64,000 nucleotides of DNA from Candidatus Latescibacterota bacterium (GCA_965223905.1 CBDCXV010000011.1:640001-704000); one strand, 5' to 3'. Counted from the stretch's first letter, positions 37,365-55,733 are shown. Made by a program: numbers and translations. Notes: a model not told the origin generated them from the sequence alone.

Positions 37365-37422
37365 TTGGGGGTAAAAAAGCACTCCGTTATGGATTCCAGT
37401 ATCCGTGCTTTTTTACCCCCAA
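37365..37422. repeat. 58-bp palindromic insertion (18-bp perfect inverted repeat, 22-bp spacer)
   Basis: TTGGGGGTAAAAAAGCAC...GTGCTTTTTTACCCCCAA; absent from the homologous site of the inner IS66 (GTGCCGAAGCTGG). Confidence 0.85.
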
Positions 37423-37546
37423 AAGCTGGTGTGACGCCACAACATCCCATGACGAAGGGCTCGTTCGGGGTCGTTGTTGGTCGGCTCGACGCCTTCTCTG
37501 CGCACGAAGGTCCACAGGGCCGGCCCGAGGTCGAGGAGGTTGGCGC

Positions 37547-39170
37547 GTAACCGTTCAGTTCCCCTGGCAGGTTGGGGCGGGGGCGGAATGGTAGCAGGTT
37601 GACTATTAACGAATGGGGGAGTGGGTTGAAGGCAGCAGCGAGGGCGCCGGCTGCTTAGACACGGCGGCGTCACAGGCCATCCTGAGATAGTCGAGGACGT
37701 TGCGCTGCTGCTGGCGCAGGGTATCGCGCACCGTGAGCAGGCGCTCTACGAAACGGCTGCCTTCGGCACTGTGGGTGCCGAAGCTGGTGTGACGCCACAA
37801 CACGCCATGGCGAAGGGCTCGTTCGGCGTCGTTGTTGGTCGGCTCGACGCCGGGCCGGCGTGCGAAGGTCCACAGGGCCGGCCCGAGGTCGAGGAGATTG
37901 GCGCAGGTGGCCGCCGTCTTGGCGTCGGCGAACTGCTGCCCATAGCACAAATGAAACCGAAAGCGCAGACACAAATCGTCGATATAGTCCTGGAAGCGGG
38001 CGCGGGACAGGGTACCGTCGCGGACTTGATGCCACCAGGTAAACAGCTGCTCGCTGCGGTCCAACAGGTGTTGACCGACGCGCTCGGCCTCTCCGCCCCG
38101 GGCCACGAACTCCTCGAAGGCGCGCCGCAGGTGAGCCCAGCAGACTTGCCGGCGTCGCAGCGGCAGATGCGCGTAGGCCGAATAGCGATCGCAGCCGACC
38201 ACCGCCCGGTTATCCGCACCCAGCATCTCATCGACCCCGTCGCGGTTACGTCTTTTGCGGATGGAGAACACGGTGACGCCGTCCGTCACCGCGGTCCACA
38301 ACCAGGCCTTGGCGCGGCGCTGGCGCCAGCCGGTCTCGTCGACGTTGACGATGCCCTGTCGGCGAACGAAGGCGCGCGCCTCCTCGACCGCACCCGCCAG
38401 GGCCGTGGCCACTTCCTGTTCCAGCCGGCTGACGGTACCCAGCGACACCTCCAGGCCGAAGGCGTCGGACAACAGCGCCCGGATGTTGCGCTTGCTCAGC
38501 CGGTAGGCCCCGGCCAACAGGCCGACCCAGGCTTGCACGCTGGGACCGAAGGTGTGCCGCGATACGCCCTCGGGCCAACCGGCTTCGGTCAGGCGGTCGC
38601 AGTGACCGCAGCGCAGGGTGTGCAACTGATACTCGATGACCTCGGCCCGCACCGGCGGGATGACGACTGCCTGGTGACGCTGCGGATGGGGATCGTCTCC
38701 CGTCAACAGGTGCCCGCATCCGTGGCACGTACTCGGCTTGACCGGGATCAGTTCGTCCACCTGCTCCACCGATACCCACGAGCGGCCGTGTCCTTCGTGC
38801 CCGGGCTGTCCGCCCGGCGAGCGCCCCGAGGATCGGCGTCGGGAGGCGTCGGTGCGAGGCGAGGAGGAAGCGCCCGATTCCGACGAGGCGGCCCGGGCAC
38901 CGCGGCGGGACCGCCCCTTGCGGCGGGCCAATTCCCGCTCCAGCTCGGCGATCCGCGCCGTCTGTTGTTCCACGATTTGCTCGAGCTGGACAATGCGCTG
39001 ACGCAAGTCGCCTTCGGAAATCGCACTCTCAGGGGGTCTCTTCATGGGGTCGCCGTATCCAGGGAAATCTGCAACACACAACCGATTCCCGAAGATACCG
39101 ACGAACCCCAAAACCCGCGTAGGTATTTCTTTATATGCTCAAACTACTGCAGGGGGGACTGAACGGTTAC
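37547..39170 (-). mobile_element. Intact single-gene IS66-family element (ISBst12-like)
   Basis: Terminal IRs GTAACCGTTCAG / CTGAACGGTTAC; 8-bp TSD GTTGGCGC at 37539-37546 and 39171-39178. Confidence 0.95.
37606..39045 (-). CDS. IS66 family transposase
   Basis: GGQPGHEG, CxxC zinc finger, VDETGW, CWAHL, EPTNNDAERALR. Confidence 0.95.
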   Translation of the reverse strand: MKRPPESAISEGDLRQRIVQLEQIVEQQTARIAELERELARRKGRSRRGARAASSESGASSSPRTDASRRRSSGRSPGGQPGHEGHGRSWVSVEQVDELIPVKPSTCHGCGHLLTGDDPHPQRHQAVVIPPVRAEVIEYQLHTLRCGHCDRLTEAGWPEGVSRHTFGPSVQAWVGLLAGAYRLSKRNIRALLSDAFGLEVSLGTVSRLEQEVATALAGAVEEARAFVRRQGIVNVDETGWRQRRAKAWLWTAVTDGVTVFSIRKRRNRDGVDEMLGADNRAVVGCDRYSAYAHLPLRRRQVCWAHLRRAFEEFVARGGEAERVGQHLLDRSEQLFTWWHQVRDGTLSRARFQDYIDDLCLRFRFHLCYGQQFADAKTAATCANLLDLGPALWTFARRPGVEPTNNDAERALRHGVLWRHTSFGTHSAEGSRFVERLLTVRDTLRQQQRNVLDYLRMACDAAVSKQPAPSLLPSTHSPIR

Positions 39171-39516
39171 GTTGGCGCAGGTGGCCGCGGTCTTGGCGTC
39201 GGCAAACTGCTGACCATACCCCAGGTAATTATGAAACCGCCCACGCACGTCGCTGCCGTAGACCTGGAAGCTGGACCGTTGCAGGGTGCCGTCGCGGACC
39301 CGGTGCCACCAGGTAAACAATTGCTCGCTGACATCCAACAGCCGTTGGCCGACCCAGGCGGCCTCTTCGTCCCGGGTCACGAACTCCTCGAAGGTGCGCC
39401 GAAGATGAGCCCAGCACACTTGCCGGCGTCGCGGCGACAGATGTCCTTAGGCCGAATTTCAACTCCTGGTTCGATGTCTGGAGACGGACCTACCTCAAAA
39501 AGGAGGGTCTTCCTGA

Positions 39517-39792
39517 ATGCAAAACCTTTTTCTGTTGCTGGTCCTTATTTTGGCTGGCTCTGTCAGTCCGGGGGGATCCATATGCTGTCCCTTTCCCCTC
39601 CCTAACGGGCTTGAAGTGGGTGATCGTTGGACCTATTGGTGGAACTATCCGCATGGGCAGGACAGTTTAATCACCGTCGTTGGCAGCCACGAATTGGGGG
39701 AGCAGATTTATTTCTAATTGAATGACGGGGGCTTATACCGGGTAGATGAAGAGCATCGGACCTGGAAATACGATCCCATTTTGGAAAGCGAG
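39517..39792 (+). pseudogene. A-like secreted protein remnant (A0, divergent)
   Basis: AGGAGG RBS, signal peptide, LEVGDRWTY (cf. LAVGNSWTY), in-frame TAA 39715-39717, joined to B sequence at ~39793. Confidence 0.55.
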
Positions 39793-40941
39793 GCGGTGCA
39801 CCTGATCGACCGAGGCCGTCACCGTCACCAGTATCTGCTGGAACGGCGTGCTCACGACGGAAGCGATGGGATCTCATTCGGCCGCTACCTCCTTTATCAT
39901 GAGTGCGACGAAGATCCGGGCCTTTTTATCTGGAGGCGCAGTACTACATATCCTGCAACTTGGCCCACACACCGCATCAGGGACGCCCAGGAACGTCGGC
40001 AACCGCTGCTGATCGTGGCCGACGATCGGCGCATCCGGGACGCGCGCGATAGCATGCCGAAGCGGAATATAGATATATACCAGGATATGCTCTTCGATCC
40101 GTTTCCGGTGGTGGGAACCACCACTTTTGTGATTGGGAGCACCACTTTTTCCCAGGGGCCGGTCGATGCGGTTTATTCCGACAGGGCCGACATCGGTCTG
40201 CGCCAGACCACTTCTAGCGGGAACTTTGATGGCGAGCAGGTGGACCCAGGGGAAGTCGGCTTGGCGATCACCAACATCACCCGCACCGAGGTCACGGGCA
40301 GGGCGGATCGGATCAGAGTGGACGTCATCTTTCTTCCCAGGGCTCCGGCCAACTTCACCGTGGAGGGGGGCGACGGGGCGGCCACCCTGCGCTTGGACGA
40401 TCCGGACGACTTCAGCCTCGATAGATGGGAGTATCAACAACAAGGCGGGAGCGACTGGGTGGAGATTCCCGTCGACGACGACCAATTGACCCGTGACGAG
40501 GCGACGGGGACCCTCTCGTATCCGGTGATGGGCCTGACCCACGGGGAGATGTACAGCTTCTAGGTGCGGGCGCACAACGCCGCGGGGTGGGGGCCGGCCG
40601 CGGGGCCGGTCGAGGTGACGCTCAACACGGCGCCGGAGGTCCTGGGTGACCGGAGTCCCTCGTTCGATGAGAACAGCGAGCAGCCGGTGGCCACGTACAC
40701 GGCCACCGACGCGGAAGGCGACGCGATCACGTGGTCCCTGACGGGGGCAGATTCCGCGGCGTTCGATCTCCCCGCCGACGCTACAGGCAATTCGTTTGAC
40801 CTTACGTTCGGGACGGCGCCGAACTACGAAAATCCGACCGATGCCAACCTGGACACGGTCTACGAGGTCACGGTGGTGGCCACCGACGACGGTATGCCGC
40901 CGCTGCCTGCGAACTATAGTAACAGGACCAGGTGCGCATGA
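39793..40941 (+). pseudogene. C-terminal half of B protease (B0) with FN3 and cadherin-like domains
   Basis: Highly similar to B2/B3/B4; lacks the catalytic HExxH region; GAG>TAG at 40561-40563. Confidence 0.85.
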
Positions 40942-41010
40942 ATCACATCGGGCACCTGCGGTTTACAAATATTTCGTTAACGCGAACGATGGAAGAGAGG
41001 ATAAAGCATC

Positions 41011-41820
41011 ATGGAAACGAAGAAGATGATGATCAGCCTGACCCTGGCCGCCCTGCTCGGGCTGGGCGGGGCGCTGCCGGCCGCAGGCACCGACTATGCG
41101 GTTTCGGACTACCTGCCCCTGGCCGTGGGCAACTCCTGGACCTACGAACATTCTGTCGTTGGGAATCCACCTTACGATGACGATGAAAGGGACTTATGGG
41201 ACAGGACTCAATGGTCTACGTACACGGCACAATACCCTTCGATTCCCCAATTCACGATCACGGTGGAGCGCACCGAGGTGATCGACGGTAAGACCTATTT
41301 CGTGATCAGCGGCATGCCCGCCAACTGGCCGCCGGCGCCGCCGCATTTCATCGCCGGCAAGAAGCTGCGCTGGGAGGGCACCCACCTTATGGAACGCACC
41401 TCGGATGGAGAGCATGCGATCTTTCGCTTCGACGGCACTACCTCGACGATGGTCCCTTGGGAAGGAATGGATCTGTACGAGACGGAATACGCGATCCCGA
41501 CGGTAGAGGGGGACAATCAAGTCAAGGTGGTGGCGGGATGGGAACCGGTGCCATGGTATTCGTTCACGTTCTGGGGAAACGATGAAGGAGGGCGTGGGTG
41601 CGGCTTTCTTTGGGGGTATGGTTCCGGCGGATGCGGTTGGAGGATTAGCGGATCCGATGTTGCCATAGTATCCCAAAACCGTGTGGCTCCCCTTCGGGGG
41701 GTAATCGGCGGCAACCGGGTGGAATTTTCCGATGCGTTGATCCCCACCTCTTCGTCGTCCTCTTCCTGGGGCAGAATCAAGAATACGTTTTTCGCCCATG
41801 ACGGGAGGACCAGCCCATGA
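41011..41820 (+). CDS. Cassette gene A1: secreted protein (PLAVGNSWTY motif, SSWGRIK tail)
   Basis: Signal peptide, 269 aa, paralog of A2-A4; stop overlaps B1 start (ATGA). Confidence 0.85.
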   Translation: METKKMMISLTLAALLGLGGALPAAGTDYAVSDYLPLAVGNSWTYEHSVVGNPPYDDDERDLWDRTQWSTYTAQYPSIPQFTITVERTEVIDGKTYFVISGMPANWPPAPPHFIAGKKLRWEGTHLMERTSDGEHAIFRFDGTTSTMVPWEGMDLYETEYAIPTVEGDNQVKVVAGWEPVPWYSFTFWGNDEGGRGCGFLWGYGSGGCGWRISGSDVAIVSQNRVAPLRGVIGGNRVEFSDALIPTSSSSSSWGRIKNTFFAHDGRTSP

Positions 41821-42368
41821 GTCGCCCTTTCTTGTTCATCGCCCTCCTGCCGTTCCTCGGGGCGCACTCGGTCCTGGCCACTGGGTCCCCAGACACCTGG
41901 GATCGATCAATGACTCTGGACGTGGTCCTGGTCACATTTCAAGATGCGACCACGGCCAACCCCATGACCCCTATGTCCTGCGTGAGCAATAACACGCCTC
42001 AGGTATGTGATTATCATAACCATGACCTTCCCTACGGGTACAACGCGAATAGGGAGCCGTCGAGCTCAAGTTACCTGCTGCGGGACTTCGAGCGGCTTTT
42101 CAGTGGTGGCTACGGTACCCTGCCGGATTTTGTCGGGACCAGTCAGACGGTCGCCGATGACAACCATACGCTGCCGGAGGTGTTCGGCAGTGTGCGGGCC
42201 TACTTCGATTCCGTATCCAACGGGATGCTCGAACTGAACGTGCGCATGATCAATCCTGCTGATTCGCAGGGCAATCCCCGCTGGATCGAGCTGCCGCGCA
42301 CCAAAGCCGAATACGCCCGGATTACCATAAATAATCGAACAAGGCGGCCTGATGACGGGTACGCATGA
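41817..42368 (+). pseudogene. Cassette gene B1: N-terminal fragment of the M6-like protease
   Basis: LDVVLVTFQD, EVFGSVRAYFDSVSNG as in B2-B4; ends after RTRRPD at the junction motif. Confidence 0.8.
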
Positions 42369-42440
42369 ATCACACCAAGAGCGGACAGTTATCTCCTTTA
42401 AGGACAGTAATCAAAAATTAAAAGGACGGAGGAAAGCATC

Positions 42441-43250
42441 ATGGGAAAGAAGAAAATGATGGGCATTAGCCTGACCTTGGCCGCTCTGCTCGTAGCAAGC
42501 TGGGCGCTGCCGGCCGCAGCCACCGACTACGCGGCCTCGAACTACCTGCCGCTGGCCGTGGGCAACTCGTGGACCTACGGACATTCTGTCGTAGGGCTTA
42601 CGCCCTACGATGAGGATAAGAGCCATTGGCCTACGTACACGGCGCAGTTCCCTAAGAGACCCCAATTCACGATCACGGTGGAGCGCACGGAGGTGATTGA
42701 CAGCAAGACCTACTTCGTGATCAGCGACATGCCGGACCACTGGCCGCCGGCGCCGCCGCATTTCATCGTCGGCAAGAAGCTGCGCTGGGAAGGCACCCAC
42801 CTTATGGAACGCACCTCGGATGGAGAGCATGCGATCTTTCGCTTCGACGGCACTGCCTCGGACTACACTACCTCGACGATGGTCCCTTGGGAAGGAATGG
42901 ATCTGTACGAGACGGAATACGCGATCCCGACGGTAGAGGGGGACAATCAAGTCAAGGTGGTGGCGGGATGGGAACCGGTGCCATGGTATTCGTTCACGTT
43001 CTGGGGCAACGATGAAGGGGGGCGTGGATGCGGCTTTGTTTGGGGGTATGGTTCCAACGGATGCGGTTGGGGGATTAGCGGATCCGATGTTGCCGTGCTA
43101 TTCGAAAACGATGCGACTCCCCTTCGGGGGGTAATCGGCGGCAACCGGGTAGAATTTTCCGATGCGTTGATCCCCACCTCTTCGTCGTCCTCTTCCTGGG
43201 GCAGAATCAAGAATACGTTTTTCGCCCATGACGGGAGGACCAGCCCATGA
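42441..43250 (+). CDS. Cassette gene A2: secreted protein
   Basis: 269 aa; 3' half nearly identical to A1; ATGA overlap with B2. Confidence 0.85.
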   Translation: MGKKKMMGISLTLAALLVASWALPAAATDYAASNYLPLAVGNSWTYGHSVVGLTPYDEDKSHWPTYTAQFPKRPQFTITVERTEVIDSKTYFVISDMPDHWPPAPPHFIVGKKLRWEGTHLMERTSDGEHAIFRFDGTASDYTTSTMVPWEGMDLYETEYAIPTVEGDNQVKVVAGWEPVPWYSFTFWGNDEGGRGCGFVWGYGSNGCGWGISGSDVAVLFENDATPLRGVIGGNRVEFSDALIPTSSSSSSWGRIKNTFFAHDGRTSP

Positions 43251-44272
43251 GTCGCCATTTCTTATGGATCGCCCTCCTGCCGTTCCTCGGGGCGCACTCG
43301 GTCCTGGCCACTGGGTCCCCAGACACCTGGGATCGATCAATGACTCTGGACGTGGTCCTGGTCACTTTTCAAGATGCGACCACTGGAACCGGGGTATATC
43401 ACTTGCACGACCGGCCCTACGGCACCAATCCCGGGGAGTCGGCCGATTCCATATACACGTTGCGCGACTTCGAGCGGCTCTTCAGTGGCGGGTACGGCGT
43501 CCTGCCGGATTTTGTCGGGACCAATCAGACGGTGGGTGACGGCCATGTGCTGCCGGAGGTTTTCGGCAGTGTGCGGGCCTACTTCGATTCCGTATCCAAC
43601 GGAATGTTCCAGTTGAACGTGCGCATGATCAATCCTGCTGACTCGGAGGGTTATCCCCGCTGGATCGAGCTGCCGCGCCCCAAGGCCGAATACGCCACGA
43701 TTATGATAAATGATCGAACCCGTCGGCCTGATGGAGGATTACGGGGGGATCTTTTCTGGGACGATGCCTACGAGACGGCGATGGACTCGGTGCGCTGCTG
43801 GAACCCTTCTTCGAACGTCCCGGGGGCAAACTGCGGGGTTTCGGCGATTTCCACGTACGCAATTACCGGAATCGGCCCTGGCGCCACCGTGGCTCAGCGA
43901 GTGGGGCACAAGGTGGCCTACCTGTATTCGGGAGCCACCTTCAAGGGGAGATCTCCTGCCGGTCTGCTGCATCCGAATGCCGATCTCCATACAGAGACCC
44001 ATCCGAGTAGTTCAGATGAAGTCGGTTACCGCTACGTGATGGGGGAGCGGGAGGGCAGCCATAACGATGACAACCGAACCATTGACGAGTTCGCTCCGAT
44101 TTACACCCATGCCCACGAAATCGGCCACCTGTTGGGGCTTTATCACGGTGGGGGCGGGGTAAGTGTTCCCAATCCGTACATGCCTGGCTCAACCTCTACC
44201 GCCCGGGGGGGGCAATATGCTCCACTGGGTGTTGATGCAAGGCAACGGAGCGGGGCCGGAAGTGATAAATAA

Positions 44273-45735
44273 GGCTATATCCGGATTCTTCAAAGGGCAT
44301 TTTATAGCGTTTACAGAGGGAGATTTCGAGGGTTTCACACTGTACGGAATCGGGCCGGAATCTGCGCCGGGATATCGAGGTCTCCGACACACAGATAAAT
44401 CAGGTCGGCAAAGGCATCCAGAGATTTAAATCCACTGGCGCGGTTCTTGAGCATGCGCACGACGCGGTTGAGGCCTTCGGCGGCGGCGTTGGTCAGGTGC
44501 GTACCGATGAAGGCGGTGATGCCGGCCGCCTGCTTTCGCACGGTGCCGACGAACCTGCGCAAGGGTTCCAGGCGGCTGCGCAGGGCCGCCGTCGTCCACT
44601 TCTTGAGGAAGCGTTCGGCGGCCCAGCGCGCCTTGTAGCGCCAGAAGTGCTCGAACTCGTCCTTCAGGCGCCAGGCGCGGTAGATGCGGCGGTTGGCCTT
44701 CTCCAGGGTTTGGAGCGTGCGCCGGTCCTTTCGCGAGCGCTGGGCGGAGTGATGCAGCAGCACCCAGCGCAGGCCCTTGAGCAGCTTGCGGTCCTCGCCG
44801 CAGGCTTGGCGCCACTGCTCCTTGCGCACCTCGTCGACGGCTTCGTTGAGGGCCTTGACGACGTGGAACCGGTCCAGGACCAACTCGGCGTTGGGACAGT
44901 GCCGGCCGATGGCGCCGATGAAGGTCTCGCTCAGGTCGCAGCAGGCCCAGCGGATGCGGTCCTTCTGGGAGGCGCTGAGATGGTCGCGGAAGAACGCGTC
45001 GATGGTTTCCCGTGCCTTGCCCTGGCCGACCCACACCACGCGGGAGCGTTCCAGGTCGTAGACCAGGGTGGCATATTTATGGCCCTTGGCGTAGGAGATC
45101 TCGTCGATGCCCACCGTCTTCAGCCCGCGGATGCGATGCCCCGTACGCCGGCGCTCGATGAGCCGGTGCAGCTGATCCGACAGCGTCGACGGGGCCAGAC
45201 CCAGCAGGCGTGCGGCGGCGGCCTGCGTCATCCACTGGCAGTAGGTCAGCAGCAGGTATTCGAAGCGGTAGCTGACCCGGGCCGAGCGCGCCGCCCAGGG
45301 GGCCTCCTCGAGGCGACGGCCGTGGGTAGGGCAGCGGATCTCCCGGGGGGCGTGGTGCAGCCACACGGTACGGCCGCCGACGCGGACATCGCGCCAGCGG
45401 CGGGGCTCCAGGACCTGAACGATGCGGCCCCGGAGCCCGCACTCGGGACAGCGGCAGCCGTTCTTTTGGGGCTTGACCTTGACGACGACAGCCGCTTCTT
45501 CCCCGCGTCCTTCGAACCACACGCTCACCGCGCGAAACCCCTTGAAGTTGAGCAGCTTGGAGACGAACTTCATAGCGGTCATAGGTCGCCTTCTCTCTTT
45601 CCCTTTGGGGAGTGCTTGATGGGGATACACCAAGCATAGGGAACGACCTATGGCCTTGTCATGTACTCAGAGGAACAGCAAAGGCTCAGGTACTGCCGTA
45701 CTTACGTTTCGGCGTTGAAAAACCCGGATAGAACC
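44273..45735 (-). mobile_element. ISL3-family insertion sequence
   Basis: Imperfect IRs GGCTATATCCGGATTCTTCAA / GGTTCTATCCGGGTTTTTCAA (rc); 8-bp TSD ATAAATAA at 44265-44272 and 45736-45743. Confidence 0.95.
44335..45582 (-). CDS. ISL3 family transposase
   Basis: CPECG zinc finger, VGIDEIS, LDRFHVVK, TNAAAEGLN..GF; start 45582 or upstream. Confidence 0.95.
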   Translation of the reverse strand: MTAMKFVSKLLNFKGFRAVSVWFEGRGEEAAVVVKVKPQKNGCRCPECGLRGRIVQVLEPRRWRDVRVGGRTVWLHHAPREIRCPTHGRRLEEAPWAARSARVSYRFEYLLLTYCQWMTQAAAARLLGLAPSTLSDQLHRLIERRRTGHRIRGLKTVGIDEISYAKGHKYATLVYDLERSRVVWVGQGKARETIDAFFRDHLSASQKDRIRWACCDLSETFIGAIGRHCPNAELVLDRFHVVKALNEAVDEVRKEQWRQACGEDRKLLKGLRWVLLHHSAQRSRKDRRTLQTLEKANRRIYRAWRLKDEFEHFWRYKARWAAERFLKKWTTAALRSRLEPLRRFVGTVRKQAAGITAFIGTHLTNAAAEGLNRVVRMLKNRASGFKSLDAFADLIYLCVGDLDIPAQIPARFRTV

Positions 45736-47088
45736 ATAAATAACGGCTACCATACGCCCTACCGCTCCTGCCCCCCTCCAATCAATCCCTTCTACCAGTG
45801 GGACCTTGGGTGGATCACCCCGACCCCTATCACCGGATCCCAAGACAATTATGAAATAGAGCCCGGCACGGTGCAGCTTATCACCCGGGGCGATATCGAG
45901 TACCCTGCTGGAGCGTCGTTCGCACGATGGTCAAGGCCCCCCTCACGACAGCGGAAGAGGAATCTCATTCGGCCGCTACATCCTTTACCATGAGTACGCC
46001 GAAGATCCGGGTCTTTTTATCTGGAGGCGCAGTACTACATATCCTGCAACTTGGACCACACACCGCATCAATAACGCCCAGGAACGTCGGCAACCGCTGC
46101 TGATCGTAGCCGACGACCGTCGTATTGGCAACGCGCGCGATCAAGAACAAAACCCGAGTATACCCGAATACCAGGACATGCTGTTCGATCCTTTTCCGGT
46201 GGTGGGAACCACCACTTTTACGATTGGGAGCACCACTTTAACCCAGGGGCCGGTCAATGAGGTTTTTTCCGACAGGGCCGCCATCGGTCTGCGCCAGACC
46301 ACTTCTAGTGGGAACTTTGATGGCGAGCAGGTGGACCCCGGCGAGGTGGGGTTTGCGGTCACCGACATTACCCGCACCGAGGTCACGGGCAGGGCGGACC
46401 GGATCAGAGTGGACGTCATTCTTCTTCCCTCGGCTCCGTCGAACCTGACGGTGGCAGCCGGCGGCGGCGCGGCCATCCTGAGCTGGGACGATCCGGACGA
46501 CTTCAGCCTCGATAGATGGGAGTATCAACAACAGGGCGAGAGCGACTGGGTGGAGGTTCCCGTCGACGACGACCAATTGACCCGTGACGAGGCGACGGGG
46601 ACCCTCTCGTATCCGGTGATGGGTCTGACCCACGGGGAGATGTACAGCTTCGAGGTGCGGGCGCACAACGCCGCGGGGTGGGGGCCGGCCGCGGGGCCGG
46701 TCGAGGTGACGCTCAACACGGCGCCGGTGGTTTCAGGACCTGGAACCCCCTCGTTCGATGAGAACGGCGAGCAACCGGTGGCCACGTACACGGCCACCGA
46801 CGCACAGGAGGACGGGATCACCTGGTCGCTGACGGGGGCAGATTCCGCGGCGTTCGATCTCCCCACCGAGGCTACGGGCAATTCGTTTGACCTTTCGTTC
46901 CGGTCAGCGCCCGACTACGAGAATCCGACCGATGCCAACCTGGACACGGTCTACGAGGTCATGGTGGTGGCCACCGACGACGGTGTGCCGCCGCTGCCTG
47001 GGAGCTAACAGGAACAGATGCGCATGAATCACCCGGATCGGAGACCCTAAACTTTAACTCTTCAATTTGAACGATGGAGGAAAGCATC

Positions 47089-47838
47089 ATGGAAAAGAAA
47101 AAAATGATGGGCATCAGCCTGACTCTGGCCGTCCTGCTCGGTCTGGGCGGGGCGCAGCCGGCCGCGGCCACGGACTACCAAGCTTCGGACTACCTGCCCT
47201 TGGCGGTGGGCAACTCGTGGACCTACGAGCACGATTACTACGATCCAGGCATAGACGAAAGCCAATGGTCTGCATACACGGCTCAGTATCCCTCGGACCC
47301 TCAGTTCACGATCACGGTGGAGCGCACCGAGGTGATCGACGGCAAGACCTACTACGTGCTCAGCGACATGCCGGACCACTGGCCGCCGGCGCCGCCGCAT
47401 TTCATCGCCGGCAGGAAGCTGCGCTGGGAGGGCACCCACCTGATGGAGCGCACCTCGAACGGCGAGCAGGCGATCTTCCGCTTTGACGGGACGGACTACC
47501 AAGTCTCTACGGATGAGGGGGATTTCCAGGTCACGGTGAGAACGTCGTATTCAAATCCAGTACCAAAGTATGGTTTCGACTTTAATGGTGGAGTAGGGGG
47601 TGGAGTCCGATTCCTTGCGGGCTATGGTATCGAGAGAGCTGTTCAAATTCGCTTCAGTATCGATGTCACAACGTTCATTAACGAGGTAAGACCAGTCCGG
47701 GCGGTGATCGGGGGACGTCAGGTGGAACATGCCGACGCGGAGAAGACCCCGATCGACACCTCTTCCTCATCGTCTTCCTGGGGTGGGGTGAAGCAGACGT
47801 ATTTCGCCCATGCTCCTGAAGGGAGGACCAGCCGATGA
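47089..47838 (+). CDS. Cassette gene A3: secreted protein
   Basis: Same constant blocks as A1/A2, different variable segments, SSWGGVK tail; ATG 47089 after GGAGG. Confidence 0.85.
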   Translation: MEKKKMMGISLTLAVLLGLGGAQPAAATDYQASDYLPLAVGNSWTYEHDYYDPGIDESQWSAYTAQYPSDPQFTITVERTEVIDGKTYYVLSDMPDHWPPAPPHFIAGRKLRWEGTHLMERTSNGEQAIFRFDGTDYQVSTDEGDFQVTVRTSYSNPVPKYGFDFNGGVGGGVRFLAGYGIERAVQIRFSIDVTTFINEVRPVRAVIGGRQVEHADAEKTPIDTSSSSSSWGGVKQTYFAHAPEGRTSR

Positions 47839-50063
47839 GTCGCCCTTTCTTGTGCATCGCCCTCCTGCCGGTGCTCTGGGCGTATTCGGCTGAGGCCGCC
47901 GGGTCAGCTTTTACCGGGAGGGCGTCTACTACCGCAGAGACGTTCCCCTGTACGCTGGACGTGGTGCTGGTCACTTTTCAAGATGCGACCACCGGAAGCG
48001 GGAATTATCACTTGTATGACCGGCCTTACGGCACCAACCCCGGGGAACCGGCCGGTTCCAGCTACACGCGGAGCGACTTCGAACGGTTGTTCGTCGGGGA
48101 CACGGTCACCGTGGCAGGCGGCCATGTGCTGCCGGAGGTGTTCGGCAGTGTGCGCGCCTATTACGACTCCGTATCCAACGGGGACTTCGAGCTGAACGTG
48201 TGCATGATCAACCCGGCCGGTGAGGACGGCTATCCCCGCTGGATCGAGCTGCCGCACACCAAGGCCCACTATGCCGAGATAACCAGCATTCCTCTTAGCA
48301 GAACGCACCAAGAATTCTTCGACGAGCTCTACGACACGGGGATGGACTCGGTGCGCTGCTGGAACCCTACGCCATTTCCAACCGATCCTGACCCGCCGAC
48401 CTGCGGGAGGAATTCAGCGGTAACCGGGTACGCCATAACCGACATCGGCCCTGACAACTCCGTGGATCAGCGGCTGCGCCACAAGGTGGTCTACCTGTAT
48501 TCCGGTGCCACCTTTAAAGGCAGAGATCCCGCCGGCCTGCTGCATCCGCAAGCGGACTTGCATACCCGGACCAATCCGAGCCGATCATCTCACGTCGGCT
48601 ACCGCTACGTGATGGGGGAGCGGGAGGGCAGCCACCGGAATGAAAACCGCAGCATTGACGAGTTCGCCCCGATTTACACCCACGTTCACGAAATCGGTCA
48701 TTTGCTGGGCCTCCCTCACGGCGGGGGTAAGGTGAGTGGCTCCAACCCCAATCCTTACGTGCCTGGCACGAACTATGCAACTCCCAAGGGGGCCAATCTG
48801 CTGGAATGGACCTTGATGCAAGGCAACGGGTCCGGGCCGGAAGTGGAAGAAAACGGCTACCATACGCCCTATCGCTCCTGTCCCAATCCGATTAATCCCT
48901 TTTATCTGATGGACTTGGAATGGATTGACCCGCCCACCCCTATCACCGAATCCCAGGACAATTTCGAAATAGGGCCCGGGACGGTACACCTGATCGACCG
49001 GGGACGTCACCAGTATCTGCTGGAACGGCGTTCCCACGACGGAAGCGATGGAATCTCATTCGGCCGCTACATCCTTTTTCACGAGTTCCAAGAGGATCCG
49101 GGTCTTTTTATCTGGCGACGAAGAACCTTTGCAACCCAACCGCTGCTGATCGTGGCCGACGGCCGGCGCATCCGGAACGCGCGCGATCAAGAACAAAACC
49201 CGAATATCCCCGAATACCAGGACATGCTTCTTCGATCCATTTCCGGTTGAAGCTACCCCTGTGACGGGAGGGAGCGTCAATTTTACCCAGTCGGCGGTCG
49301 ATGCGGTTTATGACAACATGGCCGACGTCGGTCTGCGCCAGACGACGGAGAATGAAGATCCCCCGGGGGATGCTGGTCGCCAAACAGATCCCATGGAGGT
49401 GGGTGTGGGTTTTGCGCTCACCAACATCACCCGCACCGATGTCACGGGCAGGGCGGATCGGATCAGGGTGGACGTCACTTTTCTTCCCAGGGCTCCGGCC
49501 AACCTCACCATAGAAGCCGGCGACGGCTCGGCCATCCTGCGCTGGGACGATCCGGACGACTTCACCCTCGATAGATGGGAGTATCGGCAGGGCGGGGGCG
49601 GCTGGGTGGAAGTTCCCGTCGACGACGACCAATTGATCCGCGTCGAGGCGACGGGAACCTTCAGGTATCCGGTGGACGGTCTGACCAACGGGGAGATGTA
49701 CAGCTTCGAGGTGCGGGCGCACAACGCCGCGGGGTGGGGCCGGTGGCGGGGCCTGTCGAGGTGACGCTCAACACGGCGCCGGTGGTTTCAGGTCCTGAGA
49801 CCCCCTCGTTCGATGAGAACAGCGAGCAGCCGGTGGCCACGTACACGGCCACCGACGCGGACGGAGACGCGATCACCTGGTCCCTGACGGGGGCGGATTC
49901 GGCGGCGTTCGATCTCCCCACCGACGCTACAGGCAATTCGTTTGACCTTTCGTTCGGGACGGCGCCGAACTACGAGCAACCGGCCGATGCCAACCTGGAC
50001 ACGGTCTACGAGGTCACGGTGCAGGCCACCGACGACGGTATGCCGCCGCTGCCTGCGAGCTAA
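47835..50063 (+). pseudogene. Cassette gene B3: M6-like metalloprotease-FN3-cadherin with two single-base indels
   Basis: HEIGHLLGLPH, WTLMQG; +1 T at ~49228 and -1 G at ~49737 relative to paralogs (may be sequencing errors). Confidence 0.8.
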
Positions 50064-50143
50064 CAGGACCAAGTGCAGCATGAATCACATCGGGCACCTG
50101 CGGTTTACGAATATTTCGTTAACGCGAACGAAGGAGGAGCAAC

Positions 50144-50908
50144 ATGGAAGCGAAGAATAAAATGAACATCAGCCTGACCCTGGCCGTCCTGCTCGGACTC
50201 GGCTGGGCGCTGCCGGCCGCGGCCACCGACTATGCGGTTTCGGACTACCAGCCGCTGGCCGTGGGCAACTCGTGGACCTACGAGCATTCTCACTCTGGCC
50301 TGGATAGAAGCCAATGGTCCGCTTACACCGCACAGTTCCCTAGGACACCCCAGTTCACGATCACGGTGGAGCGCACCGAGGTGATCGACGGCAAGACCTA
50401 CTACGTGATCAGCGACATGCCGGACAACTGGCCGCCGGCTCCGCTGCTTTTCATCGCCGGCAGGAAGCTGCGCTGGGAGGGCACCCACCTGATGGAGCGC
50501 ACCGGGGACGGCGAGCAGGCGCTCTTCCGCTTTCCCGCCGAGACGGACTACGAGGTCTCAACGGACGAAGGGCTTATTGAGGTCTCGGGGCTCATGTGGA
50601 GCAGTCATCCTGTGCCGTTATATACGTTCGAATATCCTGTTCCCAGCCTGGTGGGGGGAATAGGGGGAAGCGGGTTCCTTGCGGGGTATGGCATGGATGG
50701 ATGCGGTGATGAAATCTTCTCAATCGATGTCCCCCTATTTGGAAACGGTGTATTTGCGATCCGGGCGGTGATCGGGGGGCGTCAGGTGGAATATGCCGAC
50801 GCTTGGAGGGGGAGGACCCCGATCGACACCTCTTCCTCATCGTCTTCCTGGGGTGGGGTGAAGCAGACGTTGTTCTCCCATGCTCCTGAAGGGAGGAACA
50901 GCCGATGA
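50144..50908 (+). CDS. Cassette gene A4: secreted protein
   Basis: 254 aa, AGGAGG RBS, tail nearly identical to A3, ATGA overlap with B4. Confidence 0.85.
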   Translation: MEAKNKMNISLTLAVLLGLGWALPAAATDYAVSDYQPLAVGNSWTYEHSHSGLDRSQWSAYTAQFPRTPQFTITVERTEVIDGKTYYVISDMPDNWPPAPLLFIAGRKLRWEGTHLMERTGDGEQALFRFPAETDYEVSTDEGLIEVSGLMWSSHPVPLYTFEYPVPSLVGGIGGSGFLAGYGMDGCGDEIFSIDVPLFGNGVFAIRAVIGGRQVEYADAWRGRTPIDTSSSSSSWGGVKQTLFSHAPEGRNSR

Positions 50909-53900
50909 GTCGCCCTTTCTTGTGTATCGCCCTTCTGCCGCTGCTCTGGGCGAGTTCTGTTGAGGCTGCCGGGTCGCGGAATACTTGGAGATCCCCCACT
51001 ACCCTGGACGTGGTGCTGGTCACTTTTCAAGATGCGACAACTGGAACCGGGGTTTATCACTTGCACGACCGGCCCTACGGCACCAACCCCGGGGAGCCGG
51101 CCGACTCCAGCTACACGTTGCGCGACTTCGAGCGCCTCTTCAGTGGCGGGTACGGCGTCCTGCCGGATTTTGTCGGGACCAATCAGACGGTGGGTGGCGG
51201 CCATGTGCTGCCGGAGGTGTTCGGCAGTGTGCGGGCTTACTTCGACTCCGTATCCAACGGGATGTTCCAGTTGAACGTGCGCATGATCAACCCGACCGAT
51301 GAGGACGGCTATCCCCGCTGGATCGAGCTGCCCGAAACCAAGGCCCACTATGCTGAGATCTCCAGCACTTTAAGTAGACGCCGAACTTTCTTTAATGGAC
51401 TCTACGCCACGGCGATGGACTCGGTGCGCTGTTGGAACCCTACGCCATTTCCAACCGATCCTGACCCGCCAACCTGCGGGAGGAATTCAGCGGTAACCGG
51501 GTACGCCATTACCGACATCGGCCCTGACAACACCGTGGCTCAGCGGCGGCGCCACAAGGTGGTCTACCTGTATTCCGGTGCCACCTTCAAGGGAAGATCT
51601 CCTGCCGGCCTGCTGCATCCGCAAGCGGATTGGCACACAAGGACCACCCCGGGTATGGCCGACGACGTAGGTTACCGCTACGTGATGGGGGAGCGGGAGG
51701 GCAGCCATCGGAATGACAACCGAACCATTGACGAGTTTGCTCCGATTTTCACCCATGCCCACGAAATCGGCCACCTGTTGGGCCTCTACCACGGCGGGGG
51801 TTTGAAGAACGGACCTAATCCGTACATGCCTGACTCAACCTATATGAATGACGGGGCGGCCAACCTGCTGGACTGGGGTTTGATGCAAGGCGACGGAGCC
51901 GGGCCGGTAGTGGTAAACAGGGGCTATCATTCGGTCTATCGCTCCTGTCCCAATCCGATTAATCCCTTCTATCTGATGGACTTGGAGTGGATCGACCCGA
52001 CCGAGGTCATCGAGATCATTGGGAATCAGGACGACTACGAAATAGCGCCCGGGACGGTGCACCTGATCGACCGGGGCGCTCACGAGTATCTGCTGGAACG
52101 GCGTGCTCACGACGGGATAGACGGGATCTCATTCGGCCGCTACCTCCTTTATCATGAGTACGACGAAGATCCGGGTCTATTTATCTGGCGGCGTGAGACA
52201 TTGCCTAGATCCACGACTGCCCGAGAACGTGCGCAACCGCTGCTGATCGTGGCCGACGGCCGGCGCATCCGGGACGCGCGCGATAACGAGCCGACCCGGG
52301 ATATACATCGATACCAGGATATGCTCTTCGATCCGTTTCCGGTGGTGGGGGACACCACATTTATGATTGGGACCACCACCTTCACCCAGGGGCCGGTCAA
52401 TGAGGTTTATGACAACATGGGTGGCGCCGGTCTGCGCCAGACGACAGCTACCGGGAGGGATGGCGGTGAGCAAACAGATCCCATGGAGGTGGGTTTTGCG
52501 CTCACCAACATCACCCGCATCGATGTACCCGACGGGGCGGATGAGATCACGGTGGACGTCATCTTTCTTCCCAGGGCTCCGGCCAACCTCACCGTGGAAG
52601 CCGGCGATGGCTCCGCCATCCTGACTTGGAACGATCCGGACGACTTCACCCTCGATAGATGGGAGTATCGGCAGGGCGGGAGCGGCTGGGTGGAGGTTCC
52701 CGTCGACGACGACCAATTGATCCGCGTCGAGGCGACGGGGACCCTCTCGTATACGGTGATGGGCCTGACCAACGGGGAGATGTACAGCTTCGAGGTGCGG
52801 GCGCACAACGCCGCGGGGTGGGGGGCGGGCTCGGGACCTTTCGAGGTGACCCTCAACACCGCGCCGGAGGTCATGGGTGAGGCAAGTCCCTCGTTCGATG
52901 AGGACAGCGAGTCGACGGTGGCCACGTACACGGCCACCGACGCGGAAGGGGACGCGATCACGTGGTCGTTGACGGGGGCGGATGCCGCAGCTTTCAGCCC
53001 GCCCTCCGACGCAACGGGCAATTCGTTTGACCTTTCGTTTCGGTCACCGCCGAACTACGAGAATCCGACCGATGCCAACCTGGACACGGTCTACGAGGTC
53101 ACGGTGGTGGCCACCGACGACGGTATGCCGCCGCTGGATGCGAGTTATCCGGTGACGGTGCCCTTGAACAACGTCGACGAAGAGGGCACGGTGACTTTGT
53201 CCACGACTACGCCCCTGGTGGGTCATCCGTTGGGGAGCGCGCTCGGTGAACCGGATGGGGGCGTGACCGATCTCCGGTGGCAGTGGCAGCGCCGGTTGAG
53301 TGGTACGAAGAGGTGGGAAGACGTCTCTTCGAGCCGGGCCCGGTCCGAGGAATTCCATCAAGGGCAGGGGTATACGCCGAAACCGGGGGATGTGGGGTAT
53401 GAACTGCGGGCGACGGTCGGCTATACCGACGTGCATGGCCCGGGCAAGAGGGCGCAGAGCCCCGAGTCCGCCCCGGTGGTGGACGTGCCTTCGGCGCCTC
53501 GGAACCTGGAGGCGGCTGCGGGGAACGCCCGGGTGGATCTGAGGTGGGATCCGCCGCTCACCGACAACGGTTCGGCGCTGAGGGGGTATGGGTATCGCTA
53601 CGGCAGCGGCGGCAGTTGGACCCCGGGGACTCTGGGGCTGACGCCGAGTCACACGATCGATCAGTTGACCAACGGCACGGCCTACACCTTCGAGCTATGG
53701 GCGGTCAACGGGGCGGGGAACAGCGACCCCACCTCGGTGACGTCGACGCCGCTTGGAGTTCCCGACCCGCCGGTATTGAGCGTGGAGGAGGGGGACGGCC
53801 GGGTGCGGCTGCGGTTTGTACTGGGGTCGGACAACGGGTCGGGGATCACGCGCCGGGACACGCGGGTGTATCGCCTGGTCGACGGGGCCAGGCTGTGGCC

Positions 53901-54282
53901 GTTCGGTGAGCTGTGGTTCGAGACGGCCGTCGACCCGAGCTCGTCGGATTACCCGCGTCGGTTCACCTCGGGGTACAGCGAGGGCTGGCAGGGTTTGACC
54001 AACGGGTTGGAGTACACCTTCGAGGTGCGGACGGTCAACGAGGTGGGGACCAGTGCCCTCGCCCGGGTCACGGCCACGCCCCGGGGGTCTCCTCCTCCCC
54101 GGCCGGTGACGGTCACCTACGGGGCGTCGTCCTACGCGGCGCAGGAAGGGGGCGAGGCGGCGACGGTGCGGCTTTCGGCGCCGGCGTCTCAGGCGCTGCG
54201 CATCCCGATTGCGGTCAATCCCCCGTCGGGGGACTACAGCCGTGATCCGGGCAGCGGCCACCCCTTGTCCTTCTCCCGTTGA
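50905..54282 (+). CDS. Cassette gene B4: secreted M6-like metalloprotease with FN3, cadherin-like and Ig-like stalk; ends in a truncated Calx-beta-like domain
   Basis: 1125-aa open frame, signal peptide, HEIGHLLGLYH, three LTNG..Y.FE FN3 motifs, PNYENPTD..D.VYEVTV cadherin-like motif; cut off by an IS5 remnant. Confidence 0.88.
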   Translation: MSRPFLCIALLPLLWASSVEAAGSRNTWRSPTTLDVVLVTFQDATTGTGVYHLHDRPYGTNPGEPADSSYTLRDFERLFSGGYGVLPDFVGTNQTVGGGHVLPEVFGSVRAYFDSVSNGMFQLNVRMINPTDEDGYPRWIELPETKAHYAEISSTLSRRRTFFNGLYATAMDSVRCWNPTPFPTDPDPPTCGRNSAVTGYAITDIGPDNTVAQRRRHKVVYLYSGATFKGRSPAGLLHPQADWHTRTTPGMADDVGYRYVMGEREGSHRNDNRTIDEFAPIFTHAHEIGHLLGLYHGGGLKNGPNPYMPDSTYMNDGAANLLDWGLMQGDGAGPVVVNRGYHSVYRSCPNPINPFYLMDLEWIDPTEVIEIIGNQDDYEIAPGTVHLIDRGAHEYLLERRAHDGIDGISFGRYLLYHEYDEDPGLFIWRRETLPRSTTARERAQPLLIVADGRRIRDARDNEPTRDIHRYQDMLFDPFPVVGDTTFMIGTTTFTQGPVNEVYDNMGGAGLRQTTATGRDGGEQTDPMEVGFALTNITRIDVPDGADEITVDVIFLPRAPANLTVEAGDGSAILTWNDPDDFTLDRWEYRQGGSGWVEVPVDDDQLIRVEATGTLSYTVMGLTNGEMYSFEVRAHNAAGWGAGSGPFEVTLNTAPEVMGEASPSFDEDSESTVATYTATDAEGDAITWSLTGADAAAFSPPSDATGNSFDLSFRSPPNYENPTDANLDTVYEVTVVATDDGMPPLDASYPVTVPLNNVDEEGTVTLSTTTPLVGHPLGSALGEPDGGVTDLRWQWQRRLSGTKRWEDVSSSRARSEEFHQGQGYTPKPGDVGYELRATVGYTDVHGPGKRAQSPESAPVVDVPSAPRNLEAAAGNARVDLRWDPPLTDNGSALRGYGYRYGSGGSWTPGTLGLTPSHTIDQLTNGTAYTFELWAVNGAGNSDPTSVTSTPLGVPDPPVLSVEEGDGRVRLRFVLGSDNGSGITRRDTRVYRLVDGARLWPFGELWFETAVDPSSSDYPRRFTSGYSEGWQGLTNGLEYTFEVRTVNEVGTSALARVTATPRGSPPPRPVTVTYGASSYAAQEGGEAATVRLSAPASQALRIPIAVNPPSGDYSRDPGSGHPLSFSR

Positions 54283-54420
54283 CGATCCCGGTTCTTTGGT
54301 CGAAGGAGAGGCCTGAACCATCGTCGCGTCCATGATAGTACCCTCCCTGACCAGCAAACCCCGGTACGAGGGTCGGGACTCCCGGTGCATCCAGGGGGAT
54401 CGAGCTGGTGATCTGCTATG
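54273..54420 (-). mobile_element. Degraded IS5-family transposase remnant
   Basis: GLLVREGTIMDATMVQASPSTK, then (frameshifted) NRDRQR, matching the IS5 GTIVDAT..PSSTKN..RD motif. Confidence 0.7.
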
Positions 54421-54429
54421 TGTGAGGTG

Positions 54430-54678
54430 TGTCGCAAAATGCGACTCGCGTTCCAAATTGCAACACATTCCCCGTCCTGCTTCTTATTCTTTTCTATAAC
54501 TTATTGATAAACAAACAGTTGCAGTTTCTTCTGCCACAGGGCATTCGGTCTTCGGAGCGATGTACGTGTCGCATTCTGCAACGCTTCCCCAAATCTTGCA
54601 AGGAGACTCACATACGATATAACTCTTGCATTTGCAATAAGTTAGTCCGCTTTCTAACAGATTGGCACAGGATTTGCA
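54430..54678 (+). promoter_or_regulatory. Sigma54 promoter module copy 1 (UAS palindromes, IHF site, -24/-12)
   Basis: TGGCACAGGATTTGCA 54663-54678; IHF consensus TATCAATAAGTTA (rc) 54497-54509; GTCGCA-N3-TGCGAC-type palindromes at ~54430, ~54450, ~54567. Confidence 0.85.
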
Positions 54679-54741
54679 GACAAGTCTTGATATGCAAGAC
54701 TCTTCCCGTCGCTGCTGAACGATTGAGGAGAGGAAAACACC

Positions 54742-54890
54742 ATGGAAACGAAAAGATGATGGAAACGAAAAAGATGATCAGCCTGACCCTGGCCGAGCTG
54801 CTCGCAGTGAGCTGGGCCTGGGGGGCCGTAGCTGCCGACTGTGAGGCCGCGGACTACCTGCCGCCGGCCGTGGGCAACTCGTGTATTTAC
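54742..54890 (+). pseudogene. Cassette gene A5 N-terminal remnant
   Basis: METKKMISLTLA..ADYLPPAVGNSCIY; duplicated start segment; homology to A genes lost after ~54890. Confidence 0.75.
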
Positions 54891-55203
54891 AAAGATTCTG
54901 CCCATTCGGCCATTGGGGATACCAAGGCTGCCCAGGCGGGGCTGATTCTGGAGACGTACGCGGATTCAGCCGGTGACCTCGCCGAGGCGCCGCCGGCAGG
55001 GGTGATCCTGAAAGGCGGTCAGATCGACAGCAGCACGGTGGAGGTGGGCGCCTTTGATGACTCCCTCCTGAATGAAGGAGGAAAAATGAGGCTCCTCCGG
55101 AGAATCTGTGGGTTGAGGAGGGGAGGCCTTGACGATGGGGATAGAGGGTCGAGACGGCCTGCGCGTCGAGGGGATCGATGCGGGATCCCCAATGCGTGAG
55201 GAC

Positions 55204-55452
55204 TGTCGCAAAATGGGACATTCGTTGAAAAATGCGACACATTCCCCGTCCCGTCTCCGAATATTTCCTATAACTTGTTCAAAAACTTACAGTTGAAGTC
55301 TCCCCGCAACAGGGCATTCGGTCGTCGGGCGCGATGGGCGTGTCGCATTTTGAAACACTTCCCGAAATTTTGCCAGGAAACCCACATACGATATAACTCC
55401 CGCATATACCGTATGTTAGTCTGTTTTCAAAAAAATTGGCACAGAATTTGCA
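55204..55452 (+). promoter_or_regulatory. Sigma54 promoter module copy 2
   Basis: TGGCACAGAATTTGCA 55437-55452; TGTCGCAAAATGGGACA, GTTGAAAAATGCGAC and TGTCGCATTTTGAAACA palindromes; colinear with copy 1. Confidence 0.8.
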
Positions 55453-55678
55453 AACCGGATCTTAACAAGCAGGGAGGGTACAGCGCGCCCGAACCCGGTG
55501 ATCTACGGATAGGAGAGGTAGGCGCCCAATAGCAGAGATAAAGGGGGCAAGGGGGGATATTTTTGCTCCCAAACAAATTTAGGTATTGGTATTGACAAGG
55601 GCATATTGGCGGGGTTTCTTGTACGGGCCAAGCGAAACCCTTCGCAGTTAGGCGCAATTAAACTTAGGGCGCGGTGTG

Positions 55679-55733
55679 TAGCGAATGATGGAGTGGGTTT
55701 TGGCAGCGGCGAAGGCGTCCTGTGCTCGTGCAC
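55679..55733 (-). mobile_element. Short IS66 transposase 3'-end remnant
   Basis: AGCGAATGATGGAGTGGGTTTTGGCAGCGGCGAAGGCG aligns to outer IS66 37191-37245. Confidence 0.5.

Follow-up and report, generated by a model that had tools for sequence, protein, structure and literature searches.

A tandem array of a putative protease gene and its predicted partner, made mosaic by short-tract exchange, in a Latescibacterota chromosome segment

Locus and array layout

We analysed a 64,000-nucleotide stretch of DNA, called the window here, from Candidatus Latescibacterota bacterium (GCA_965223905.1 CBDCXV010000011.1:640001-704000). At 39.8–54.3 kb this chromosome segment of an uncultured bacterium of soil or sediment type carries a head-to-tail tandem array of five units (U0–U4) of a two-gene module, in which gene A encodes a small, predicted exported protein and gene B a putative secreted zinc protease. 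We consider it likely that the conflicting trees of the units stem from gene conversion, that A caps the zinc site of B, that recombination reshuffles the interface between the two proteins and that A is kept without B.

Between 39.8 and 54.9 kb we counted five copies of B, four full copies of A and one A fragment. In all four full units the start of B overlaps the stop codon of A in an ATGA, and whole units are 70.6–84.3% identical to one another (self-BLAST). The two genes differ in their state of preservation: A1–A4 are all intact, and among the B copies only B4 is an uninterrupted open reading frame (ORF). In B0–B3 the frame is lost to truncation, an in-frame stop, the ISL3 element or frameshifts. 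Each of B1–B3 has its own ATG and signal peptide. The parts of the array are as follows.

37131-39600, minus strand: IS66-family transposase gene (37606-39111) together with IS66-like remnants that are repeated within the block (Pfam DDE_Tnp_IS66, E 1.5e-33); the block forms the upstream edge of the array and stands in place of the 5′ part of B0
39794-40941, plus strand: B0, 3′ portion of a B gene, corresponding to B4 residues ~385-748 (tblastn with B4, 75% identity); 5′-truncated behind the IS66 debris, with an in-frame TAG at 40561-40563
41011-41820, plus strand: A1, intact, 269 amino acids (aa), gene of the predicted secreted partner; its stop overlaps the B1 start (ORF list)
41817-42368, plus strand: B1, ending after about codon 183, where an internal deletion has brought the gene directly up to the usual inter-unit spacer (GCATGAATCAC...) (ORFs, self-BLAST)
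42441-43250, plus strand: A2, intact, 269-aa partner gene (ORF list, blastp)
43247-44272, plus strand: 5′ part of B2, with a frameshift near a G8 run (~44205-44212) (alignment, frame check)
44273-45735, minus strand: ISL3-family insertion sequence inside B2, transposase 44335-45633 (Pfam DDE_Tnp_ISL3, E 1.5e-66), with terminal inverted repeats of 21-24 nt; the 8 bp duplicated at the target, ATAAATAA, lie at 44265-44272 and 45736-45743
45744-47008, plus strand: 3′ part of B2, with a frameshift near 45903 (alignment, frame check)
47074-47838, plus strand: A3, intact, 254-aa partner gene (ORF list, blastp)
47835-50063, plus strand: B3, short-form B gene with frameshifts near 49228 and near 49736 (ORFs, alignment)
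50144-50908, plus strand: A4, intact, 254-aa partner gene, its product predicted to lie on the B4 active site (ORF list, models)
50905-54282, plus strand: B4, 1125 aa, uninterrupted; the repeat unit ends near 53147 (ORFs, Pfam, models)
54750-54900, plus strand: A5′, decayed and partial 5′ end of another A gene, where GC is low (self-BLAST, blastp)

The A5′ fragment was recognized by a self-BLAST match between 41003-41155 and 54752-54900 (77%), and the local GC content is 0.55-0.56. A1 is 83% identical to A2 and 57–60% identical to A3 and A4; its first 100–150 nt are closest to A4 (91–92%). The spacers between the stop of one B and the start of the next A (40942-41002, 42360-42432, 47009-47063 and 50064-50126) have the conserved word GCATGAATCAC in common; the spacer from B0 to A1 is 97% identical to that from B3 to A4, and the spacer from B2 to A3 differs. 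Spacer sharing and the likeness of the A1 and A4 5′ ends suggest that the array grew by copying a block across a unit border. A scan of 39000-56000 for promoter and terminator consensus sequences returned 3 and 12 sites, not above shuffled sequences.

Conflicting trees within the array

The first-pass annotation had described the B copies as mosaics whose segments are shared incongruently, and all seven motif sharings that it quoted were recovered, with an incongruence beyond chance. B1 and B2 have the signal region in common, together with RTRRPD (B1 42336-42353, B2 43715-43732). B2 shares TTGTGVYHLHD (B2 43379-43411, B4 51037-51069) and GGYGVLPDFVGTNQT (B2 43487-43531, B4 51145-51189) with B4, RRSTTYPATW.THRI (B0 39934-39978, B2 46025-46069) and TSSGNFDGEQVD (B0 40210-40245, B2 46301-46336) with B0, and DQEQNP.IPEY (B2 46139-46171, B3 49185-49217) with B3. 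B3 and B4 share WNPTPFPTDPDPPTCGRNSAVTG (B3 48360-48428, B4 51433-51501).

At the DNA level, the copies share patches. The 5′ part of B2 contains a U4-like patch at 43379-43560 (93–97%) within a U1-like background; its 3′ part contains U0-like patches at 46013-46070, 46280-46350 and 46486-46730 and U3-like patches at 46139-46171 and ~46740-46830. B3 holds a patch common to B4 at 48345-48440. In a scan of identity over 100 nt, the nearest relative of U2 switched at least six times along the unit, from U1 to U4, U1, U3, U0, U3, U0 and U3. Most shared patches are 93–97% identical, not 100%. The description of the flanking blocks as nearly identical held for some 100-nt windows (90–100%) and failed for whole units, whose identities are those given above; the longest exact match is 141 nt between U1 and U2, and no other pair exceeds 75 nt.

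We compared two quartets of units: U0, U2, U3 and U4 over the 3′ half of B (3′ set), and U1–U4 over the A gene and the 5′ part of B (5′ set). The 70 parsimony-informative sites of the 3′ set were split 32/12/26 among the three possible topologies, in long runs, and the 128 of the 5′ set 108/13/7. When the order of sites was permuted, the pairwise homoplasy index (PHI) of the data was reached in 0/2000 permutations in either set, and the runs statistic in 0/10000 (3′ set) and 3/10000 (5′ set). Approximately unbiased (AU) tests were then made on fixed 200-column blocks, so that the borders were not chosen by the data. Blocks 400-800 of the 3′ set favoured U0U2|U3U4, with p-AU ≤0.009 for the alternatives; block 800-1000 favoured U0U4|U2U3, with p-AU 0.020 for U0U2|U3U4; and blocks 200-400 and 1000-1200 leaned to other trees (p 0.05–0.07). 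Four of the seven blocks of the 5′ set strongly supported U1U2|U3U4, one leaned the same way without rejecting the alternatives, and two had no preferred tree. A single tree for all segments is rejected by both PHI and the AU tests on fixed blocks.

Tracts and silent sites gave the same picture. A GENECONV-like test found significantly long identical tracts in five of nine copy pairs (0/5000 permutations each for U1-U2, U2-U4 and U2-U3, 2/5000 for U0-U2 and 3/5000 for U3-U4), the other four pairs being not significant. Synonymous divergence (dS) in windows of 40 codons ranged from 0.00 to 0.86 for U1-U2, from 0.11 to 1.13 for U2-U4 and from 0.04 to 0.89 for U3-U4. Because dS is patchy within single pairs, the patchwork is present in silent sites too, and the sharing is not due to amino-acid convergence.

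It is extremely improbable, in our judgement, that the array arose by serial duplication only, with uneven rates, convergent selection on loops or misalignment producing an apparent mosaic in the absence of recombination. Insertions and deletions in several variable segments do make the alignment uncertain, and in a few windows the nonsynonymous divergence (dN) reaches or exceeds dS, which points to selection on some segments. However, the PHI-like signal persisted when every column lying 8 or fewer positions from a gap was left out (0/5000 in both sets), dS runs from 0.00 to about 1 within one pair, and neighbouring fixed blocks significantly back opposite topologies; moreover, relatives carry stretches of 94–266 residues identical to different copies in the window (see below). 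The earlier view that serial duplication alone cannot give this pattern is thus borne out by the conflicting trees of fixed blocks, the long shared tracts and the patchy dS.

No single tree relates the units, and short-tract homologous exchange between them has been recurrent. Stretches that range from tens to a few hundred bases and differ in age have moved between units by homologous recombination, mostly as two-sided patches of the gene-conversion type, and the array has also been remodelled by deletions and insertion sequences. The first-pass annotation had left the choice between segmental gene conversion and unequal crossover open; exchange of this general kind is supported, and because the patches in U2 are bounded on both sides, gene conversion fits better than single unequal crossovers. 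The exchange had further been placed in the protease region, where it is indeed present, but it extends to the part of B with fibronectin type III (FN3) and cadherin-like domains and to the upstream A genes.

Chimeras and module conservation in relatives

A search with B4 residues 1-545 returned 54 proteins, of which five were close (61–87%) and encoded on other contigs. These relatives recombine the segments seen in the window. Residues 1-266 of P0003 are identical to B4 and residues 475-592 to B3; residues 146-257 of P0002 are identical to B3 and 382-550 to B4; and residues 249-457 of P0005 are identical to B3. P0004, a long form, departs from B4 at residues ~100-250, where it has B2-type cassettes and B4 matches B3. 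The A proteins behave alike: P0058 is A4(1-94) followed by A3(90-247), both exact, and P0099 is a mix of A2 and A1. Together, the alignments demonstrate for the predicted proteins that close relatives combine the same cassettes into different chimeras, in A and B alike, which suggests that exchange is recent and recurrent in the population.

Several points weigh against recurrent exchange as set out here. The 5′ set is mostly tree-like, with 108 of its 128 informative sites on one topology, and its U2/U4 patch is supported by the pairwise tract test and the identity scan but lies where AU block 1000-1200 favours no tree. When six intact proteins were divided into three segments, they gave conflicting maximum-likelihood trees, each of which rejected the other two (p-AU ≤0.0008), but the segment borders had been picked after painting of the relatives and the test is partly data-driven. 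The chimeras of the relatives are known at the protein level only. The frame breaks in B2 and B3 lie at or near homopolymers (G8, CCC at 45903-45905 and C6 at ~45935-45940 in B2; TT and G4 in B3), and these frameshifts at short homopolymers could be sequencing errors or slipped-strand changes; the housekeeping genes that were checked in the window look intact, which speaks against the former.

A metagenome assembler that switches between paralogs or co-existing strains could also produce chimeric copies, an explanation that we regard as very unlikely. It gains some weight from the relatives, which are all metagenome-assembled and include contigs of 23–72 kb that are possibly short-read assemblies. 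The exact repeats between units are nevertheless short, as noted above, and an assembler switch would not be expected to leave patches diverged to 93–97%; these two features make chimeric assembly unlikely. In addition, the ends of the ISL3 element are clean, with 8 bp duplicated at the target, the same cassettes occur in different combinations on at least three separate contigs, and the protein is on record from a contig of 2,195,907 bases.

The broken copies bring to mind the pilE/pilS, vlsE and msp2 loci, where a full gene stands beside partial copies with conserved blocks and variable segments, and recombination yields chimeras. Were the array a programmed system of this kind, B4 would be the sole expressed gene and the broken B copies silent, one-way donors. 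The truncated or broken state of B0–B3 next to the only uninterrupted ORF agrees with this idea, as does the difference between P0004 and B4 at residues ~100-250, B2-type in one and B3-type in the other. We none the less think it improbable. Short-form B genes in relatives are complete ORFs of 752–770 aa with signal peptides (P0002, P0003, P0005 and P0006) and are therefore not mere silent cassettes; the full units in the window keep a start codon, a signal peptide and an intact A gene; and exchange has also occurred between short forms and in the A genes. A silent donor would have no start or export signal of its own and would never be complete, and neither B1–B3 nor the short forms of the relatives are of this type. 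Nor do the data give a direction of transfer.

The module itself is widespread in metagenome-assembled genomes (MAGs) labelled Latescibacterota and Gemmatimonadota. Among 29 related loci from species-representative genomes, none of which exceeds 55% identity to B4, 17 have an A-like gene whose end is no more than 200 nt upstream of B, and in one more (L008) A abuts B; this arrangement is kept down to ~30–35% identity in B. Self-BLAST of the 29 loci revealed local partial duplications of the module (L003, 2477-3451/9124-10111, 92.8%) and arrays of FN3-type repeats, too divergent for recombination tests. Several contigs of relatives are rich in A-family genes: there are five on a contig of 23,815 bases, four on one of 7,393,604 bases and three on each of four others (47,884, 78,553, 230,230 and 846,342 bases). 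In L003, L011 and L017, A-like stretches outnumber B-like ones, and A may often be in excess of B.

B as a putative metzincin-like protease

B4 comprises a signal peptide, the motif HEIGHLLGLYH, FN3 and cadherin-like domains and further domains. The motif residues H286, E287, H290 and H296 (HExxHxxGxxH) are invariant in 52 sequences, and M327, conserved in at least 90% of sequences, is a candidate Met-turn by sequence alone. The M6 domain model TIGR03296 matched B with E 3.2e-6 and 27.2 bits, against a curated cut-off of 110.8. No peptidase family reached the gathering score in a Pfam scan, and B fell below every curated peptidase model of Pfam and NCBIfam. An AlphaFold model of B4 (mean predicted local distance difference test, pLDDT, 77) had as its best PDB fold match the M6 zymogen InhA2 (4yu5; Foldseek E 8.4e-4, probability 1.00), with a template-modelling (TM) score of 0.33 and a root-mean-square deviation of 8.4. 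In a PDB profile search with the B alignment FN3 matches dominated, and nothing informative was returned for the protease part.

In the thuringilysins, according to the available part of PMC12237041, the third zinc ligand is an Asp. A His in this place and an M6 score below the cut-off put B outside M6, and B is, on these grounds, a putative secreted metzincin-like zinc protease near, and not inside, that family. It resembles the M6 immune inhibitor A proteases, which gave the top solved-structure match, in being a secreted multi-domain zinc protease, and departs from them in the low score, the low TM score and the ligand (His rather than the thuringilysin Asp; PMC12237041, as far as its available part goes).

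The swapped segments of B had been called loops. We found no support for this label on the AlphaFold model of B4, with the partly mis-framed fragments B2m and B3c set aside: DSSP coil was assigned to 70 of 109 variable and 254 of 414 conserved positions (Fisher p 0.66), and variability was not enriched at positions of low pLDDT either (Spearman rho −0.07). Absence of coil enrichment leaves the name unproven, and it counts against a reading in which loops are what is shuffled.

A as a predicted exported partner modelled on the B active site

A proteins are 254–269 aa long and predicted to be exported by the Sec pathway, with a signal peptide, about 227 residues in the mature form and no lipobox cysteine. 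No family in Pfam or NCBIfam was assigned to A. The model is a beta-barrel (pLDDT 80), for which the fold matches were weak: a YmcC-like/DUF3108 protein (3fzx, E 8e-4) and LolA-like proteins, with TM ~0.3. In the ESM Atlas the best score was 0.89 and the DUF3108-like lead reached 0.76 only; a PDB sequence profile search with A gave nothing below E 0.18. Relatives of A numbered 213 cluster representatives at E ≤0.001 among 1.84 billion. Near the C terminus, every A protein has seven consecutive serines and then W-G-x-x-K (A4 residues 229-240); T229, S234, W236 and K240 do not vary among 89 sequences. Across the family, A is conserved in its N-terminal half and variable in its C-terminal half.

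Complex prediction with B4(23-545) and A4(28-254) was run three times and gave a median score of 0.83; the best of three controls scored 0.00. Of solved complexes, 58 of 80 reach the mark applied to this score, and of mismatched pairs 2 of 110; for our self-made alignments these counts are a rough guide. Runs agreed in at least 63% of contacts, and the partner had a pLDDT of at least 82. A has no sequence relative in the PDB, so that memory of a solved complex is an unlikely source of the score. The predicted interface comprises residues 143-168, 209-211, 233-254, H286, E287, H290, Y295, H296 and 518-519 of B, and residues 47-51, 64-69, 150-163, 173-204 and 218-222 of A. We infer that A is a lid over the catalytic zinc site of B, where it would act like a cognate inhibitor or an in-trans pro-segment.

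Variable positions, counted again with B2m and B3c set aside, were concentrated at this modelled interface in both partners. In B they made up 20 of 39 interface positions and 89 of 484 elsewhere (Fisher 1e-5); in A, 28 of 42 and 33 of 185 (Fisher 1.5e-9). Two of the seven shared motifs, the RTRRPD region and TSSGNFDGEQVD, would fall within the predicted interface. Since the most variable segments of the two proteins come together there, recombination would reshuffle pieces that include determinants of specificity.

Three considerations count against the idea that matched interfaces are shuffled. Part of the enrichment may be only a matter of surface versus core, solvent exposure being uncontrolled. 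A modelled complex does not distinguish an inhibitor from a chaperone. P0003 reproduces B4 1-266 exactly, and P0057, the one A4-like protein observed on the P0003 contig, is A4-like in its C-terminal half at only ~70–85%; if the two genes are adjacent, this is a poor fit to strict co-inheritance of the interface halves.

A might thus be something other than an inhibitor, for example a helper in secretion or folding, an adaptor, or a protein unrelated to B activity, with the variable interface incidental; we rate this as unlikely, though as a serious contender. The missing family assignment, the weak fold matches and Atlas leads below 0.9 leave room for it, and a complex score supports binding without showing it and is silent on function. 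On the other side, the modelled interface holds the zinc ligands and the catalytic glutamate, and the order of A upstream of B persists at ~30–35% B identity. The same gene order, with an upstream inhibitor that is a small beta-barrel and a downstream peptidase, is described for operons of Tannerella in the available part of PMC9890683.

Retention of A and a possible role of the module

We prefer A as a cognate inhibitor or in-trans pro-segment, and the pattern of decay can be read with it. Eight disabling lesions were counted in ~6.2 kb of B0–B3 and none in 2.4 kb of A1–A3; at an equal rate ~3 would be expected in A1–A3, with a Poisson probability of none of ~0.05. Four of five B copies appear dead and all four full A copies are kept, which suggests that A is useful even when its B is lost, perhaps by guarding against related proteases.

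By analogy, the array might be a polymorphic protease/inhibitor locus in an arms race, of a toxin-immunity-like kind, in which B acts against competitors or their surface proteins, A protects the producer, shuffling creates new specificities and orphan A copies resist the proteases of relatives. This scenario would fit the retention of every full A beside the loss of most B copies, but we consider it rather doubtful.

Gene conversion among tandem paralogs is textbook knowledge, and a mosaic alone is therefore not surprising. The interest lies in what is shuffled, a previously undescribed two-gene module. If A is a cognate inhibitor, the array would be a case of diversification of bacterial protease-inhibitor specificity by recombination that is visible at the population level, and A4/B4 would be a defined pair for testing in vitro.

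Comparison with known systems

Orphan toxin-immunity arrays of contact-dependent inhibition (CDI) and Rhs systems retain protective partner genes after loss of the active gene. The present array differs from these and from the cassette loci in that B copies are complete genes in relatives and show no direction of transfer; it further differs in that the partner gene lies upstream, not downstream, and the variation extends across the protease body and is not confined to a C-terminal tip.

By analogy, the closest known module would be the potempin/KLIKK pairs. In Tannerella forsythia, the secreted KLIKK peptidases are encoded directly downstream of small exported beta-barrel ORFs, and potempins inhibit the genetically linked peptidase specifically by inserting into its active-site cleft, with several modules per genome (PMC9890683, available part). 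As in that system, A stands directly upstream of B (ATGA); it is predicted to be an exported beta-barrel, and the model places it on the zinc site. Potempins are, however, lipoproteins of 98–132 residues with oligonucleotide-binding (OB) or eight-stranded folds, according to the same part of PMC9890683, unlike the ~227-residue mature A, which lacks the lipobox cysteine; and the KLIKK peptidases are of different catalytic classes. No potempin was found among the fold matches of A listed (ranks to 50 of at least 500, with gaps) or among its PDB sequence matches. Tandem mosaics and orphan inhibitor copies are not described in the available part of PMC9890683.

The closest known evolutionary pattern may be that of GP63 (leishmanolysin) of Leishmania, a surface or secreted metzincin-type protease encoded in tandem multi-copy arrays, whose variation maps to the surface of the protein and is put down to intragenic recombination and mosaic gene conversion (PMC6367770, available part). 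The likeness to the B array consists in the metzincin-type protease, compared at the metzincin motif only, the tandem copies and the mosaic variation. GP63 is unlike B in being eukaryotic and, as far as the available part of PMC6367770 goes, in having no paired partner gene and in a variation that is read as host immune evasion. A literature search that paired Latescibacterota or Latescibacteria with either metalloprotease or metallopeptidase returned no papers, and one for immune inhibitor A with gene conversion gave nothing judged relevant from the listing.

Flanks of the array

The window is high in GC (0.63–0.70), and the array itself is at 0.58–0.65 (2-kb windows). Housekeeping genes for DnaB, CoaBC and M17 and M32 peptidases match their Pfam models essentially end to end; the nearest named relatives of DnaB come from MAGs labelled Gemmatimonadota (76%) and Latescibacterota (71%).

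At the upstream edge, IS66-family fragments are nested or duplicated (37131-37364/37547-37781, 89%; 37898-38183/39172-39457, 80%). These fragments and the ISL3 copy mark the array as a hot spot for the insertion of mobile elements.

Downstream, the stretch 54283-58547 between B4 and a gene with FN3 and Calx-beta domains is low in GC (0.55-0.56) and contains the A5′ remnant, as well as a direct repeat (54368-54681/55144-55455, 77%). No family was assigned to an ORF at 56100-57086 in this stretch, and its identity as a divergent A was ruled out by hhalign (probability 0.1%). The gene at 57121-58722 encodes a second M6-like protease (TIGR03296 E 1e-21; hhalign 91.8% to the B profile); it was rejected as a member of the array and is a distant relative of B. 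The C-terminal part of P0004 (~residues 1011-1426) is 78% identical to the product of the FN3/Calx-beta gene (58548-62321; also 60282-61553) and only 42–45% identical to the B4 tail, so that either a B4-like unit has been fused elsewhere to a gene that is separate here, or 54.3-58.5 kb has been inserted here. The end of B4 falls inside a Calx-beta-like segment, and B4 may be 3′-truncated.

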